A stretch of 64,000 nucleotides of DNA from positions 26,296 through 90,295 of the forward strand of contig JAAWDR010000026.1 in assembly GCA_022793875.1 (NCBI GenBank), written 5' to 3'. Shown here piece after piece: positions 9,001 through 15,000 of this stretch (position 1 is its first letter; every line of letters begins with the position of its first letter). The DNA is from Clostridia bacterium (lineage in GTDB: Bacteria > Bacillota > Clostridia > TANB77 > CAG-508). The position numbers are program-made.

Positions 9001-12000
9001 ATAATTGGAATTATCGTAGGAATTATAATATGTATTAACCAGGATAAAACTGATTATGATAGAATTTATCTTAATTCATTAGAATTTGATGGAAGACTTG
9101 CAGAATATACATTTAATCCAAAATTAGATGATAAGGGAACATATAAAATCAAATTTAAAGTAAAGGATAACTTAAAAGATAATGTTCACATAAGTTTATA
9201 TAAACTTGAAAATGGAAAAGAATTAAATATAAAACTTGATGATAAATTGGAATCCGAAGAAATTGAAAAATTAAATGAATTGAATTTAAAGCTAGTGATA
9301 TATAAAGAAAAATCTTATAATATGCTAGATAAAGACTATATTGATATAGGCTATTTATCTATAAATAATGCTAACTAAAGATAAAATATATATAAGATAC
9401 AAAAGATAAAATTAATAAAATACAAAAGATGAAAAAGTCAGGAATTTAGGTTCTTGGCTTTAATTTTTGTATTTTATATATACTTTTCATTATAGGAGTG
9501 ATATAATTACTAATAGTAAGAGAAATAGTAATTTTGAGAAAGGAATTTATATATGTGTAAATGTTGTGAAGAAATAGAAAATTGGAAAGAAATTAATCAA
9601 AATAATGAAAATATAACAAGCAAAATATTCGCCGAATTGTCTATTCGTAGTTGGAGAAAAGGAGAGAAAAAAGTTAGAGGAAATGAATTTAGTAATGTAA
9701 CTACTAACCAATACGAATTAAGGTATTGTCCTTTATGTGGAAAAAAACAATAAGAATAGTAAATGCTTTTTATAATTTAATTAGAACTAAAATAAAATTA
9801 GTAATTTATCGAGGAGATAGAAATGAGAATTTTTAGTGCATTAATTTTAGGATTGATAAGAAACATATTTCCATTAATATTAGCATTATTTGCTGTAATA
9901 AGGGTATCGAAAATACAATCAATCAGTAGAAAAAATAAAATTATATTAAGTATTATTATCTTATTTTGTATATTTATAATAAGTAATTTGATTTGGCGTT
10001 ATCAAGGGGATTTTGAAACAATTCTTATGCTATATGCGATTTTTATATTATTGGTATACATAGGACCAGTGGTTCTGTTAGTATTTGCTATAAAATGGAT
10101 AATAAAAACAACTTCTATAAGTAAAAAATTTAAAATAATACTGCTTGTTATTATTTCAATTTGTGTTTGTATTATTCTAAGTAATTATAGAAATGAAACG
10201 ATTGATGAAAAATATATAAAACTAAATGAAATTGTTAATAATGAAAGTCTTATTGGATTATCAGAAGATGAAGTGGTTGAATTATTAGGAAAACCAGGTT
10301 ACATAGATACTGATCCTAGACAAGGATTTACTTTTTATGAATATGGTGCAGGAACAATATATGAAGAATGGTTTTGGGGAAAATGTTATAAAACAAAATA
10401 TTATCGATTAACTATTTTATTTGATAAAAATGGTATTGCAAAAATTGCTTCTATAAAAGACATTACAGATTTATAGAAGATTGTACTGATTAAAAGAGAT
10501 CAGAGAAAAATTACAAATTGTCGAGTAGGAGAAAATGATTTGAAAACCTTAATAATTTATGCTAGTAAAACAGGAACAACAGAAAAATGTGCTAAAGAAA
10601 TAAATAGGCAGTTAAAAGATTCTAAAATAGTAAATATATTAAATCAAAATGAAGATATAAATGAATATGATTTAATTATTATTGGTACGCCAATTAGAAT
10701 GGGAATGATAGACAAAAAAATAAGAAAGTTTTTGATTAGTAATATTGAAAATTTAAAATCAAAAAAGGTAGCATATTTTATTTGTTGTGGTTTTAATGAA
10801 AATTGGAAAAGTTATTATGAACAAAATATTCCAAAAGATTTATTAGATACTGCTATTATTTATGATACTTTTGGAGGAGAAATGGATATACAAAAACAAA
10901 AAGGATTCGATAAATTTATTACAAAGATGGTAAGCAAAAACATAGAAAAAGATAAAGAAATAAAAATCTTAAATGAAAATATTGATAAATTTATAAAAGC
11001 ATTAAGTTAGTGAAAAATTACAATAAGTAGAGAGGGGTGATTTTTATGCCTAAAATACATTGGATAGGAATTATAGAAGAAAATAAAATAAGAGAGTATC
11101 AAAGAGGCAGTTTAGATTCTAAAGCAATAAAAATTAAAATGCCTAAAAATATGAATGAACTTATGATTAAAGGGTTACCATTTTTGATTCCTGCATTTAT
11201 TATTATGTTTGTATCTATGAATATAAAAACTGTTATAAATCAACAAAATATAGTTAATAGACCATTTATATTAGTTGGTGCGATTATAGGCTTTATTCTT
11301 TTATTAGTACACGAATACTTACATTCAATAGTATATCCAAAAGAAGCTAACTCTTATATTGGAATTGCAAAACCTATTACATTTGTATCTTTAACATCAT
11401 ATCCATTATCAAAGAGAAGATTTATTGTTATGAGTTTGTTACCATATATATTAGGAATAATTCCTCTTATATTATTTTGGTTATGCCCTGCAAGTTTAAC
11501 AGAATTAAATGGTATATTTTTTGGAATGGCTTGTATGGGAATGGCTAGTCCTTATCCAGATTCATATACAGTCTACCAAATAATAAAACAAGTTCCTGAA
11601 AATAAGAAAATACAAAATTACGAAGATGATATTTACTATATTTAGTAACAAAAAATTACAATTTGTGATTTTGTTACTTATATTTAATAAAATTATAAAA
11701 AATTGAAACTTTTTTGAAAGTTACTTGTCTGTTATAGTGAAAGCAGGTAAAAAATGGAGAAAGATGTAGATAAAAAATTATATAATGATTATTTAGATGG
11801 ACAAAAAGAAGCTTTTGAGTTCTTATATAACAAATATAAAAAAAGAATTGAATATTTTATTTTTAATATTGTAAAAGATTATCAAAAAGCAGAAGATCTT
11901 ACACAAGAAACTTTTATATATGTTATGCAAAACAAAATGAAAGAAAATGTTTCTTTTAAATATTATATTTATATGGTAGCAAAAAGTAGAGCAATAAATC

Positions 12001-15000
12001 ATATAAAAATAGAAAAGAGAAGAACGGAAATAACAGAAGAATATTTATATAATTTTACTGAAAATATTGAAAAAGATGTATTAGAAGTTATAACTAAAGA
12101 AGAAACAAAAAAAGAAGTTATTGAAGCAATAGAATTGTTAGATGAGAAATACAAAAATGCAATATATTTAGTAAAAATTGAAGAATTATCTTATGAAGAA
12201 ACTTCCAAAATACTAGGTCAAACTCTCCAAAACACAAAAAACTTAATTCATAGAGGTAAAAAAGAATTAAGAAGAATCCTGCTAAAGAAAGGATTTGATG
12301 ATATGAATAAAATACTAAAAGTAGTTATTGTCATTCTTTGTATAACAGTAAGTTTAACAGGAATAACATTTGCAGGAGTTACAATTTATAATACATTTAT
12401 AAAAAAACAAGATAAAATAGAAACAAGAGGATTATTTGATGATGGTAGAGGATATACAGATTATGAAACAGACTTAATGGCTAATGATATGACTTGGCAA
12501 GATGATGTAAGATTATATTATAGAACAATAACAAATTCTAATGATTACGAAAAATACAAATCAAGAATATCAACATTTCCAGAGATTTCTGAAATTAATT
12601 TTAATGAAAATTTCATTGTAATTATTGCAAATGAAAATTATAGAGATTTTGATGAAATTGATATGGAAATTTCAAATGTTTATGCTGATGAAACTACAAC
12701 TAATATCATAATGAAACAAAAAGAAAGTCCAAATATGAACGATACAACAAATGTATGGTATGCTATTGTTGATAATTCACAATTAAAAGATAATGTAAAG
12801 ATAACAATAGAACACAAAGAGTTTAGGAATGAGAATGTTATAGAAATCTCAAAATTACCTTTGGATTATTCTGTTAATACAGCAATAGAAGATGGTTGCT
12901 TTACATTGAAAAATAATAAAGTAGTATCTTCTAATGAAAATCAACTAGATGAGTTCATAGAAAAAACACAAAAAGGAGAAAATAGTTTTATAAGGGTATA
13001 TAGTAACTATGAAGGAGAAATTACTATAATAGATGTAAATTTTGAAAATGGAATATATTATACTGATACAATAGTTCTAGGTACTGAAAGAAAATATCAT
13101 AATACATATAAAAATTTAAAAAGAGAAGAAATTAGAAATGGTAATTATAAAGATATTGAATATGTATTTTATGAGGGTAGAAATCCTAATGGAGGATCTC
13201 CTTTGGTAATTATTCAAAATTGGTTAGAAGATTATAGAAAAAAATCATAAATTATGTTTTGTAAGGGAGATAAAACAGTGAATAAAGAAAAAGGGTTAAA
13301 AATAATTGTTGTTTTAGCAATAATAATCGATTTAATAACTTTTGGAAGTTTAATATATAGCAATAATAGATTAAAGCAAGAAATAGCATATTTGAAATAT
13401 GATTATAAAGAATTACAAGATGGTGTATTACAGCAAAAAGAAAATATATCTAATATTAAATCGAATGTTGATGAAATAGTTGAATTTGTTAATAAAGAAA
13501 AAGAACAGAAAAAAATTGAAAGTGATCCATACTATAAAGCTGTTAATGATTTAGATAGTACAATATTTTTAACAGATTTTGAAAATTATATACCAAATAA
13601 TAATGATGTAAAAATAACAGAGAAAAAAGCAAAAGAAATTGCTCAAAAAGGATTTGAAGAATCCAAAAGTAGAATTGCTAGAGAAGGAACCGACGATATT
13701 GATTCAGAAACAATAAAAATAGAAGAAATTGTTGCAAATAATTATTTTACTAGATATTATTATCAAGGAAATGAATTTTATGATAATATAAAAAGAAAAT
13801 GTTATGCTATTCAAAGAGAAAATGATATGGGATGTGGAGTTACGATTTATGTTGATGTAACAACAGGATTGATAATTGCAGGTAGAGCATTTGGAGATTA
13901 ATAATAAATTACAATTTTGAAGTTAGATATAAAATAGCATTAAATTAATTTTAAATATATGAAAGCCGATTTTGATTTTGGCTTTTATTTTTTGCCAAAA
14001 ATAGACAAATTTATTGAGGAAAAAAACGATTTGTGATACAATAACTACTGGAAGGAGTACAATAGGAAAATGGATAATAATATAAAATCAATAATAGATA
14101 AAATATGGTTAGTATTTCATTCAGGAGGAGTAGCAAATCCTTTAACTTGTATAGAGCAAATTACATATTTGCTATTTATTAAAGGATTAGATGATATAGA
14201 ATTAAAAAATGAAAGAGATGATGTTCTTTTAGGTATAAAATCTAAGAGAATATTTGACGAACAACATCAAGATTGTAGATGGAGTATTTTCAAAGATTAT
14301 GAAGCTTCAAGAATGTTTAAAGTAATGCAAGAGAAAGTATTTCCATTTATTAAAAGCTTGGGTAGTGATAAAGATTCAAGTTATGCTAAATATATGGAAG
14401 ACGCAATGTTTTTAGTACCTACACCAATAGTATTACAAAAAGTTGTTACTTCAATAGATAAAATAGATATGAGTGGTAGAGATACAAAGGGAGATTTATA
14501 TGAATATTTATTATCTAAATTATCTACTGCAGGAACAAACGGACAATTTAGAACACCTAGACACATTATAAAAATGATGGTTGAATTAATGAAACCTAAT
14601 AGCAAAGATGTAATAGTAGATCCTGCTTGTGGAAGTGCAGGTTTTTTAGTTGAAGCAGGGGAATATTTGAGAAATAATGAAGAGAATTTATTCAATCACG
14701 AAGAGAGTTTGCAACATTTTAATAATACAATGTTTTATGGTTTTGATATGGATAGAACAATGCTAAGAATTAGTGCAATGAATTTAATACAACACGGAAT
14801 TGAAAATCCTAATATTGAATATAAAGATTCATTATCAGAAGATAATTCAGATGAAAGTAAATATACATTAATTTTAGCAAATCCACCATTTAAAGGTTCT
14901 ATAAATAGCGATATAACATCAAAGAAATTATTAGATATGACAAATAAGACAAAGAAAACAGAATTATTATTTTTAGCATTATTCTTAAAAATACTAAAAA

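Follow-up and report, generated by a model that had tools for sequence, protein, structure and literature searches.

In an uncultured gut bacterium of low GC content, a conjugative element has two gene arrays with a 12-bp near-palindrome between their genes, and the evidence supports the view that these genes are exchangeable cassettes bounded by that motif. The element was analysed as a window of 64 kb; the host genome measures 1.83 Mb and has 26% G+C. The same genes are found in many gut bacteria, re-joined exactly at the 12-mer, which looks like an undescribed, integron-like means of gathering and exchanging genes; literature searches returned no description of such a cassette system. We propose that the cassettes are exchanged in a motif-specific manner by an enzyme acting in trans, a reading to which we assign a probability of roughly 55%.

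Array 1 (9519-13987) is a single transcription unit and a variable cargo hotspot of the conjugative element, and the array 2 region (31380-35278) is a second cargo hotspot built with the same motif. In a sister element (G017:C6), window positions 1-9518 and 13988-15541 are matched at 82-84% identity; the homology upstream of array 1 stops at 9518, and 618 unrelated nucleotides stand where the window has 9519-13987. Similarly, 1352 nt of G017:C2 take the place of 31380-35278. A third element (G373:C80) still has the terminator and a B-like site before it diverges. The extent that the sequence-only reading gave to array 1 was right as to motif-bounded cassettes but not as to the right edge, which in comparison with the sister element is the terminator (13988), 70 nt beyond the last motif (13906); in addition, a second array with the same motif occupies 31856-34804. 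An edge at the terminator rather than at the motif counts against motif-specific exchange.

Table 1. Features of arrays 1 and 2, in window coordinates.
Feature	Position	Strand	Basis or remark
Terminator-like hairpin, end of upstream backbone unit (139-aa gene, 8959-9378)	9434..9461	+	conserved in G017:C6
Extended -10 TGATATAAT, head of array 1	9499..9507	+	read from sequence; G017:C6 has GTAGTATAAT
Site B AAATAGTAATTT, first of array 1	9523..9534	+	15 nt past -10; G017:C6 breakpoint 4 nt upstream
Cassette 1: 66-aa Cys-rich (zinc-ribbon-like) protein	9553..9753	+	ORF
B-like site AATTAGTAATTT	9796..9807	+	behind TATAAT hexamer
Cassette 2: 217-aa membrane protein	9823..10476	+	ORF; 92% identical copy in G033:C2, neighbours different
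Site A AAATTACAAATT, 1 mismatch	10508..10519	+	G017:C102 flavodoxin homology begins inside, at 10509
Cassette 3: flavodoxin, TTG start	10540..11010	+	Pfam Flavodoxin_5, 3.3e-27
Site A AAATTACAATAA, 2 mismatches	11015..11026	+	identical variant at 34302 and in G023:C39
Cassette 4: DUF3267 putative zincin peptidase	11046..11645	+	Pfam, 6.8e-16
Site A exact AAATTACAATTT	11653..11664	+	sequence match
ECF-type promoter-like GAAAC-N17-GTCT, before sigma-fusion gene	11705..11730	+	read from sequence; putative promoter
Cassette 5, two-gene unit: 498-aa sigma-70 r2/r4 fusion (11754-13250) and 215-aa partner (13254-13901)	11754..13901	+	Pfam
Site A exact AAATTACAATTT, last of array 1	13906..13917	+	G023:C39 homology stops inside, at 13909
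Terminator-like hairpin, close of array 1	13959..13988	+	sister-element homology resumes at 13988
B-like site AAATAGTAATAT, before PAPS-reductase/DUF3440 gene	31856..31867	+	motif match
B-like site AGATAGTAATTT, before 178-aa gene	33226..33237	+	motif match
Site A exact, 17 nt ahead of 158-aa membrane-protein gene (33824-34300)	33795..33806	+	motif match
Site A, 2 mismatches, 1 nt past 158-aa gene stop	34302..34313	+	motif match
Site A AAATTAAAATTT, 1 mismatch, before NUDIX gene (34818-35255)	34793..34804	+	G014:C122 homology stops at 34803

The six 12-mers that had been picked out of array 1 from the sequence alone are all where they were said to be (Table 1), each in a spacer between co-oriented open reading frames; as had also been claimed, there is none in the 3-nt spacer that joins the sigma-fusion gene to its partner, an extended -10 precedes the first site, and a terminator-like hairpin follows the last. 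This two-gene unit is found together in G023:C39 at 86-90% identity, with the GAAAC-N17-GTCT element retained upstream of the sigma-fusion homologue. The Cys-rich protein of cassette 1 had no match in Pfam or NCBIfam searches. The 12-mer, taken at first for a single motif, is indeed shared, but it comes in two co-oriented forms, B (AAATAGTAATTT) and A (AAATTACAATTT), which differ by only 3 bases around an invariant core, AAATTACAA. Form B follows -10 promoters and opens arrays, and form A lies between cassettes and at the array close; the first two sites of array 1 are variant B in the same orientation, each behind a -10-like hexamer. Most of the 28 distinct B sites that we collected lie immediately downstream of TGnTATAAT-type promoters. 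The proposed resemblance to a Pc-attI-cassette layout stands for the recurring order of promoter, first site and cassettes.

Could the motif be a chance likeness of AT-rich spacers? Window-wide, the degenerate 12-mer is no commoner than expected, at 9 matches with up to one mismatch (8.8 +/- 2.8 expected) and 89 with up to two (101.7 +/- 11.1 expected). The enrichment that the sequence-only reading expected at the junctions is seen there: a site with at most two mismatches occupies 6/6 array 1 spacers of at least 12 nt, versus 11.4% of 857 comparable spacers genome-wide. As a post-hoc control, the best common 12-mer of six spacers was freely chosen and scored by summed mismatch. The six array 1 spacers score 6; 300 shuffles gave none at 7 or below (minimum 8), and 400 random sets of six real spacers gave none at 6 or below (minimum 7, reached 3 times). 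The exact 12-mer has only 11 copies in the genome. Sites with at most one mismatch lie within 50 nt upstream of the starts of 8/76 window genes and in 72/281 distinct gene upstream regions of the traced loci described below, versus 19/1770 host genes elsewhere (0 exact, 19 with one mismatch), and the mismatch distribution is bimodal. The sites are a discrete class, almost absent from host genes. Chance resemblance is contradicted by the post-hoc controls, the rarity at host genes, the repeated finding of this site at the borders of cassettes in dozens of further genomes, and the contexts of the 158-aa cassette, and we regard it as the least credible explanation of all.

Evidence for exchange comes from related loci, where, as had been anticipated, the array is replaced in the sister element, its genes appear in other orders and the breakpoints fall at the motif. 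Homology breakpoints lie in or beside the motif at 6/6 array 1 junctions. For example, the G033:C2 homology starts at 9789 by BLAST and, by eye, within the B-like site at 9796, and the cassette 4 homologies in L046 and L132 stop at 11664, the final base of the next site. The flavodoxin has homologues in different contexts in G014, G017 and G007; in G014:C122 the sigma-fusion gene of array 1 comes directly after the 144-aa gene of array 2, and in L046 the DUF3267 gene, the 158-aa gene and the flavodoxin are combined in a single array.

The 158-aa cassette of array 2 was traced in 81 loci (80 from other genomes plus the window), most of them metagenome-assembled, with only L060 noted as an isolate. 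Its left site is present in 55/77 assessable loci and its right site in 56/79; the homologues that have no site (22/77 left, 23/79 right) are mostly GC-richer and more distant. On the left the sites adjoin 27 different neighbours and on the right 16, and in 8 loci with 83-90% identity the homology is confined to the motif-to-motif stretch. The 11 filled/empty pairs listed amount to 10 distinct insertions. In four of the ten the pattern is clean, the insert lying between two motifs where the empty site has a single one (L055/L069, with flanks 100% identical, L098/L096, L102/L097 and L116/L047), and the other six have half a motif or none at one junction, or none in the empty site. Internal homology ends lie within 5 nt of a site in 240/846 cases versus 14 expected (maximum of 200 random-position nulls, 28), an enrichment that is overstated since the null used random positions rather than gene boundaries. 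Cassettes lie between directly repeated sites; B stays first in arrays and A follows cassettes. Motif positions from 10 onward vary with the downstream unit, and the bases ahead of the motif with the upstream unit; among pairs that share a right flank, 29-68% differ to the left of position 1.

The proteins encoded by cassettes include GNATs, a glyoxalase, a Cass2-like protein and resistance proteins. A cassette neighbourhood with a tetracycline ribosomal-protection gene is 99% identical in about 30 differently labelled genomes, and an aminoglycoside adenylyltransferase-type gene is a motif-to-motif insertion that distinguishes two otherwise identical arrays; the 100% identical flanks of this ant(6)-type insertion suggest frequent and precise events.

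These features invite comparison with integrons and CALINs. As there, the row opens with a promoter and a first site of its own kind, followed by co-oriented and mostly promoter-less cassettes of one gene each; the junction sites are where cassettes come, go and change order; the contents are small accessory and resistance genes; and hairpin-plus-promoter modules resemble the non-coding promoter cassettes of integrons. A true but degenerate integron or CALIN, in which attC has eroded to its core, would account for this layout and for contents typical of integrons. However, no attC-sized hairpin was found, as the sequence-only reading had stated: with each of the six array 1 junctions folded as DNA on both strands against 200 shuffles, 0/6 folded better than shuffled (z -1.26 to +1.37). 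The junction spacers are as short as 26-69 nt, and the 12-mer is, we presume, unlike attC core sites. The claim that no recombinase gene is adjacent also survived, Pfam scans having found none among the 76 ORFs of the window; neither an IntI gene nor another integrase is near. The two tyrosine recombinases of the contig (C49:8088-9509 and 98433-99704) are far from the arrays and are integrase types with arm-binding or SAM-like domains, and the second adjoins an HTH_17 excisionase-type gene. Also unlike integrons, the first site differs by only 3 bases from the cassette site, and the arrays belong to low-GC Firmicutes, carried on conjugative or mobilisable elements and on some phage-like contigs. 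We consider an eroded integron highly improbable. The system is integron-like in its working, yet it is not an integron.

What else could keep and shuffle a 12-bp sequence? It may be a mobile regulatory leader, maintained for expression and shuffled by short homology or template switching with no dedicated recombinase. Site A lies 13-21 nt ahead of start codons and 3-6 nt ahead of the Shine-Dalgarno sequence and contains the -10-like TACAAT, and it may therefore serve expression, whether as a -10-like element for a mobile-element factor, as a site of mRNA processing or stability, or as a translation enhancer. The B sites fall in the first transcribed bases behind their promoters, sites lie between gene blocks of phage-like contigs, and the arrays have no linked recombinase, all of which would suit a leader. 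A precedent exists in the PeSLs of T4-type phages, for which shuffling and mini-circles are documented (Arbiol et al. 2010, PMC2839356). Each PeSL joins a strong sigma-70 promoter to a stem-loop terminator, and these units recombine through the homologous recombination of the phage. PeSLs are alike in being short conserved regulatory motifs that border non-essential genes in variable regions, where insertions, deletions and replacements occur, and some junctions here are promoter-plus-stem-loop modules. Most, however, are only the 12-mer, neither promoter nor terminator; array 1 has a promoter and a terminator at its two ends only, with unfolded internal junctions, and the elements are bacterial mobile elements across many genera.

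Elsewhere, 13/96 distinct A sites are followed not by a gene but by a terminator-like hairpin or a non-coding or promoter module, and these sites are intact; the resemblance to PeSLs is thus partial, and the site appears to be more than the leader of the next gene. Further points against a leader are the near-absence of the motif from host genes, the lack of an obvious factor common to the carriers, and the precision of the ant(6)-type insertion. Shine-Dalgarno sequences are equally shared, yet they are not junctions. The shared length is only 9-12 bp, and efficient RecA recombination needs far more homology than this. Taken together, we judge a mobile leader, the chief rival reading, to be somewhat unlikely.

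Several points count against an enzyme acting on the motif. No recombinase, HUH enzyme or nuclease could be tied to the arrays, whose carriers vary in having tyrosine integrases, relaxases of the Mob_Pre and MobL types, or in one case a large serine recombinase. Neither a circular cassette nor any other product of the reaction was seen. The conserved 9-12 bp, devoid of a hairpin, are below the size of known site-specific recombinase sites. Candidates of the IS200/IS605 type (HUH Y1) were rejected: all four Y1_Tnp genes in this genome map to contigs other than that of the arrays, between unrelated repeats of higher GC content, and the junctions have no hairpins. The TTAC of the motif may resemble the IS608 target. 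No A or B site is present at the rlmD 3' end (G000:C2) or just downstream, where the only near-match is about 500 nt past the stop, and the array junctions contain no rlmD tail.

A universal host enzyme would suit arrays that occur, with no linked recombinase, in hosts of different classes, and the motif might then belong to a host dimer-resolvase site moved in trans by Xer. pdif sites are 28 bp long, with two arms and alternating orientation. Only 12 bp are conserved here, with unrelated sequence to the left and the Shine-Dalgarno sequence to the right, which is not a two-arm layout of about 28 bp; within the operon-like arrays the sites are repeated directly and do not alternate in orientation. 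The dif modules of Acinetobacter plasmids (PMC6449649) provide the precedent for discrete accessory or resistance modules with short recombination sites, no recombinase of their own and presumably an enzyme in trans. We find a Xer-type origin very unlikely.

Each array starts with a promoter and a first site B (AAATAGTAATTT); promoter-less co-oriented cassettes come next, with a site A (AAATTACAATTT) behind each of them, and a terminator closes the row. We propose that the 12-mer is the point at which cassettes are inserted, lost and exchanged among mobile elements of many low-GC gut Firmicutes, in a motif-specific reaction carried out by an enzyme encoded away from the arrays. The exchange point would lie within the invariant core AAATTACAA, most likely right after TTAC (positions 8-9). 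Rather more tentatively, and at a little short of even odds, this may be a hairpin-less gene-capture system that fills the place of an integron in low-GC Firmicutes, both Bacilli and Clostridia, whose trans enzyme would recognise AAATTACAATTT, cut just past TTAC, and insert and excise cassettes of a single gene, a promoter or a terminator in arrays on conjugative and mobilisable elements and phages, assembling operons that include ant(6), ABC-F and ribosomal-protection tet genes.

Finally, integrons are the textbook gene-collecting device, and to our knowledge they are essentially absent from Firmicutes. The 12-mer offers a simple handle for locating such arrays and for seeking the enzyme, and the practical weight of the system lies in those cassettes that are antibiotic-resistance genes (tetracycline ribosomal-protection and aminoglycoside adenylyltransferase-type). 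If our proposal is true, it would explain why small accessory genes stand behind one promoter in unrelated elements, and Firmicutes, with their gut mobile elements, would gain a plug-in system comparable to the integron and made from wholly different parts.

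What marks the junctions of array 1, the run of unrelated genes at 9519-13987? The sequence-only reading had placed a 12-bp near-palindrome at 9523, 9796, 10508, 11015, 11653 and 13906, and our own reading of the sequence bears out all six positions. Between 9379 and 14069 every spacer of 12 nt or more, six in all, holds one of the sites, and the 3-nt spacer inside the sigma-fusion/partner pair is without the motif, as had been stated. The promoter and terminator described as its frame are also in place (TGATATAAT at 9499-9507; a terminator-like hairpin at 13959-13988). The degenerate 12-mer shows no window-wide enrichment relative to shuffles, and the exact 12-mer occurs 11 times in the whole genome; the motif is therefore not a dispersed repeat, and only junction-specific tests are informative. 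A match with at most two mismatches is found in 6 of 6 spacers of the array, versus 11.4% of 857 comparable spacers genome-wide. The best 12-mer shared by the six spacers, chosen post hoc, is AAATTACAATTT, with a summed mismatch of 6. No shuffle control out of 300 scored as low as 7. Of 400 sets of six real spacers, three came down to 7, all with low-complexity or Shine-Dalgarno words, and no set went as low as 6. The motif at the array 1 junctions is not a product of chance. A second run of junctions, in array 2 (31380-35278), also carries it. Scored without selection over the 50 nt ahead of gene starts, the sites show a bimodal distribution: exact sites lie within 30 of 281 distinct gene upstream regions in the fetched loci (one-mismatch sites, 42/281), ahead of 2 of 76 window genes (6/76) and ahead of 0 of 1770 host genes outside the window (19/1770).

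Two forms of the site emerge when all are read in the direction of the genes. Form A reads AAATTACAATTT. Form B, AAATAGTAATTT, matches the reverse complement of A at all but one position, but it has the same orientation relative to the genes as A and differs from it at positions 5-7 only. A lies 1-12 nt past the stop codon, or overlaps it, and either 13-21 nt ahead of the next start or at the array end. In most of the 28 distinct B contexts collected from related loci, B lies 9-25 nt 3' of a TGnTATAAT-type -10 and directly 5' of a Shine-Dalgarno sequence; the site at 9523 is among those with this -10 layout, and the B-like sites at 9796, 31856 and 33226 are likewise preceded by -10-like hexamers. 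B comes first behind promoters and A comes after every cassette. At some junctions A, 15 nt and then B make a 12-bp inverted repeat, and at 13 of 96 distinct A sites a terminator-like hairpin comes next. We also observed modules of ~80 bp in three fetched loci (L046:3479-3559, L097:547 and, as L014, near 10242 of contig G023:C39), each built of site A, a hairpin with a 12-bp stem and a -35-like TTGAAA or TTGATA in its loop, TGnTATAAT, and then site B or A. These modules resemble non-coding promoter cassettes with inverted copies of the motif at their borders.

The source assembly (1.83 Mb, 56 contigs, 26% G+C, completeness score 79%), in which the window spans G000:C49:26296-90295, carries the arrays in what Pfam scans of the 76 window ORFs, nearly all of them on the + strand, identify as a conjugative element. 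The contig encodes a tyrosine integrase, a topoisomerase, a ParB-like protein and a split coupling protein upstream of the window, and an HTH_17 (excisionase-type) protein and a tyrosine integrase downstream. The same scans found no recombinase gene within the 64 kb, and the window's contig has no serine recombinase, PF00239 matches being confined to contigs C22 and C3. Immediately 5' of the window, two ORFs of 246 and 178 aa that match different parts of T4SS-DNA_transf make up the split type IV coupling protein. A 50-140-nt intergenic sequence with five copies in the window is common to elements of genomes G017, G020, G349 and G373, and may be a backbone regulatory or terminator module. Genomes from other families of the order match, at 78-90% identity, an AT-rich stretch ahead of the upstream terminator-like hairpin of array 1; either low sequence complexity or a conserved element may account for these matches.

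Features of the element and its arrays, in window coordinates except where a contig is named
Feature	Position	Remark
TrbL_4	910-1758	Pfam
T4SS pilin	in window	Pfam
TraG/VirB4-type ATPase	4312-6105	Pfam
M23 peptidase	in window	Pfam
Type I restriction-modification system	14070-20012	Pfam
Sortase	in window	Pfam
Thioester/SpaA adhesin	36445-39819	Pfam
ArdC	in window	Pfam
ECF-type sigma factors, several	in window	Pfam
Terminator-like hairpin	9434-9461	upstream frame of array 1
AT-rich stretch	9374-9434	
ECF-type promoter-like GAAAC-N17-GTCT	11705-11730	upstream of the 498-aa protein gene
PAPS-reductase/DUF3440 gene	31889-33181	array 2
Second run of junctions with the motif	31856, 33226, 33795, 34302, 34793	array 2
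Recurrent 50-140-nt intergenic sequence	8722-8789, 20805-20856, 21935-22072, 36277-36362, 47042-47134	five copies
Split coupling protein	G000:C49:24653-25393, 25496-26032	246 aa, 178 aa

Homologous loci show both arrays to be variable. A sister element, contig G017:C6, is 82-84% identical to window 1-2943, 3291-9518, 13988-14812 and 15087-15541, and in place of 9519-13987 it has 618 nt with an unrelated 127-aa ORF. The left breakpoint falls 4 nt upstream of site B and the right one in the terminator T-run, 70 nt beyond the last A site. A second contig of the same genome, G017:C2, aligns with 28200-31379 and 35279-38717 and has 1352 bases of different sequence between the two blocks, which makes array 2 a second hotspot. 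A left-flank DNA search matched 9 of 401 genomes of the order, the source genome included; the only other substantial matches were G349, where the match stops at a contig edge, and G373, a weak third comparator, whose contig C80 keeps the backbone to 9411 and then has its own terminator, -10 and B-like site followed by different DNA. PLSDB plasmids gave no match to array 1 in distant mode, nor to the tet-linked element in near mode. The PAPS-reductase/DUF3440 gene of array 2, which at least 13 related genomes carry at ~80% identity, behaves like a backbone gene despite its B-like flanking sites.

A wider sample of cassette ends, which follows one cassette, comes from the 158-aa membrane-protein gene of array 2 (33824-34300), for which 80 listed loci of 163 relatives in the species-genome collection were examined together with the window. 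Of the assessable loci among those listed, 55 of 77 have a left site (at most 2 mismatches, no more than 45 nt from the start) and 56 of 79 a right site (no more than 30 nt from the stop); loci without sites are mostly GC-richer, more distant homologues. The sites of this one cassette abut at least 27 distinct left and at least 16 distinct right neighbours, and those on the right include other genes, terminators and promoter modules. In this and the other statistics, loci were de-duplicated by sequence only, with related loci counted as distinct. In 8 loci at 83-90% identity the shared DNA is limited to the stretch from motif to motif. An all-against-all comparison of loci gave 846 internal homology ends, 240 of them within 5 nt of a site, versus 14 expected and a maximum of 28 in 200 nulls of random positions, which ignore the tendency of ends to fall between genes. 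Eleven listed filled/empty pairs stand for 10 distinct insertions, four of them clean: A flanks the insert on both sides, and the empty site has a single A. In one of these the flanks of a 1201-nt insert encoding an Adenyl_transf protein are 100% identical. Five have a half or absent motif at one junction or an empty site without it, and in one, from GC-richer loci, the motif is absent throughout.

The genes of array 1 likewise move as units between loci and are joined at the motif. Homology to the membrane-protein gene in contig G033:C2 (92% identity) begins at the 9796 site and stops 16 nt before the 10508 site; that to the flavodoxin gene in G017:C102 begins at 10509, inside the site; and the DUF3267 homologies in loci L046 and L132 stop at 11664, the base with which the site ends. 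The flavodoxin gene in G014:C226 and G007:C2 is without a left A site and has B-like sites over the stop codon. The sigma-fusion gene and its partner are kept together in G023:C39, where an unrelated gene, AAATTACAATAA and a hairpin/promoter module lie upstream and homology stops within the last site, at 13909. The sigma-fusion gene comes immediately after the 144-aa gene of array 2 in G014:C122. Another four homologues of the sigma-fusion gene lack the motif and are served by promoters of their own. The 498-aa product fuses sigma-70 regions 2 and 4 with a long C-terminal extension; an ECF-type promoter-like sequence lies upstream of its gene, and paralogues are found on contig C54, elsewhere on C49 and in many relatives.

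Where within the motif are the cassettes exchanged? In the 77 junction pairs with a common left flank only, motif positions 1-9 are identical and the sequences differ from position 10 on; the 348 pairs with a common right flank differ immediately ahead of position 1; and where filled/empty pairs are clean, the final 2-3 bases of the motif go with the downstream unit. From these comparisons, from the A/B differences at positions 5-7, and from B staying first and A following the cassettes, we infer an exchange point that lies past position 7 but ahead of position 10, directly behind TTAC.

We favour, with a probability of about 0.55, motif-specific recombination by a candidate enzyme acting in trans: an enzyme encoded away from the arrays would recombine cassettes at the motif. 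The joins are precise and recur at one word of 9-12 bp that is missing from host genes, and the events are recent enough for flanks to be 100% identical. The main rival, which we hold to be possible though distinctly less probable, takes the word for a conserved regulatory leader that would recombine by short homology, as is described for the PeSLs of T4-type phages (PMC2839356). A contains TACAAT and adjoins the Shine-Dalgarno sequence, and B sits at the transcript start, in keeping with such a leader; Shine-Dalgarno sequences, equally shared, are not used as joins, and the word persists without a following gene (13/96 A sites), both of which argue for motif-specific recombination. No enzyme was tied to the arrays, and no circular product was seen in the loci studied. 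The arrays work like integrons yet fail the tested defining features of integrons; attC-like hairpins, reported absent by the sequence-only reading, are indeed missing, and the junctions do not fold. They likewise fail those tested for dif modules, PeSLs and IS200/IS605 elements. A link to the Y1/RAYT-like transposases of the source genome is rejected, their flanking repeats being unrelated, and the rlmD 3' end of that genome, tried as another link, is without the motif. An Xer/dif-module mechanism (PMC6449649) is a poor fit to a 12-bp direct-repeat architecture. Sequence-word and keyword searches of the literature for the motif and such arrays found no paper on either, and on them we base the claim that the array system is probably undescribed.

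What do the arrays carry, and what carries them? The 429 ORFs of the low-GC loci form 209 clusters, most seen once. Of the 150 cluster representatives that reach 80 aa, 127 were run against Pfam, and the matches include GNAT acetyltransferases, glyoxalase, flavodoxins, hydrolases, a hexapeptide transferase, a Cass2/GyrI-like protein, VanZ, MBL-fold and pentapeptide proteins, ABC-F ATPases, Imm33, TfoX and regulators. The adjoining backbones differ, encoding tyrosine integrases, Mob_Pre and MobL relaxases or a large serine recombinase. A scan of viral contigs with a 17-mer gave 36 matches, mostly single and, when single, probably due to chance; four IMG/VR loci have 5-6 co-oriented sites each, and the three annotated ones (L149, L155, L157) are phage-like, encoding terminase, portal or GIY-YIG proteins. 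These three contigs, with terminase, portal and two GIY-YIG genes among them, have exact A and B sites between gene blocks, and one B precedes a sigma-factor gene.

Finally, in ~30 loci the 158-aa cassette stands at the left of an element that genomes with different species labels share at 99% identity and that goes on with glyoxalase-like, PadR and TetM/W/O/S-family genes; the left boundary of the element is an A site at -31 or a B site ~785 nt upstream. A resistance block spans L060:2249-6473 and ~30 other fetched loci (L048-L080), in the order DUF3781, Cass2/GyrI-like protein, 158-aa membrane protein, glyoxalase-like protein, PadR and a ribosomal-protection gene of the TetM/W/O/S family. 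Its DNA is 99% identical in genomes labelled as different classes, the labels being as deposited and the comparators, here as throughout, almost all metagenome-assembled genomes, with an isolate behind L060. This identity across differently labelled genomes points to a resistance region that would have spread very recently.
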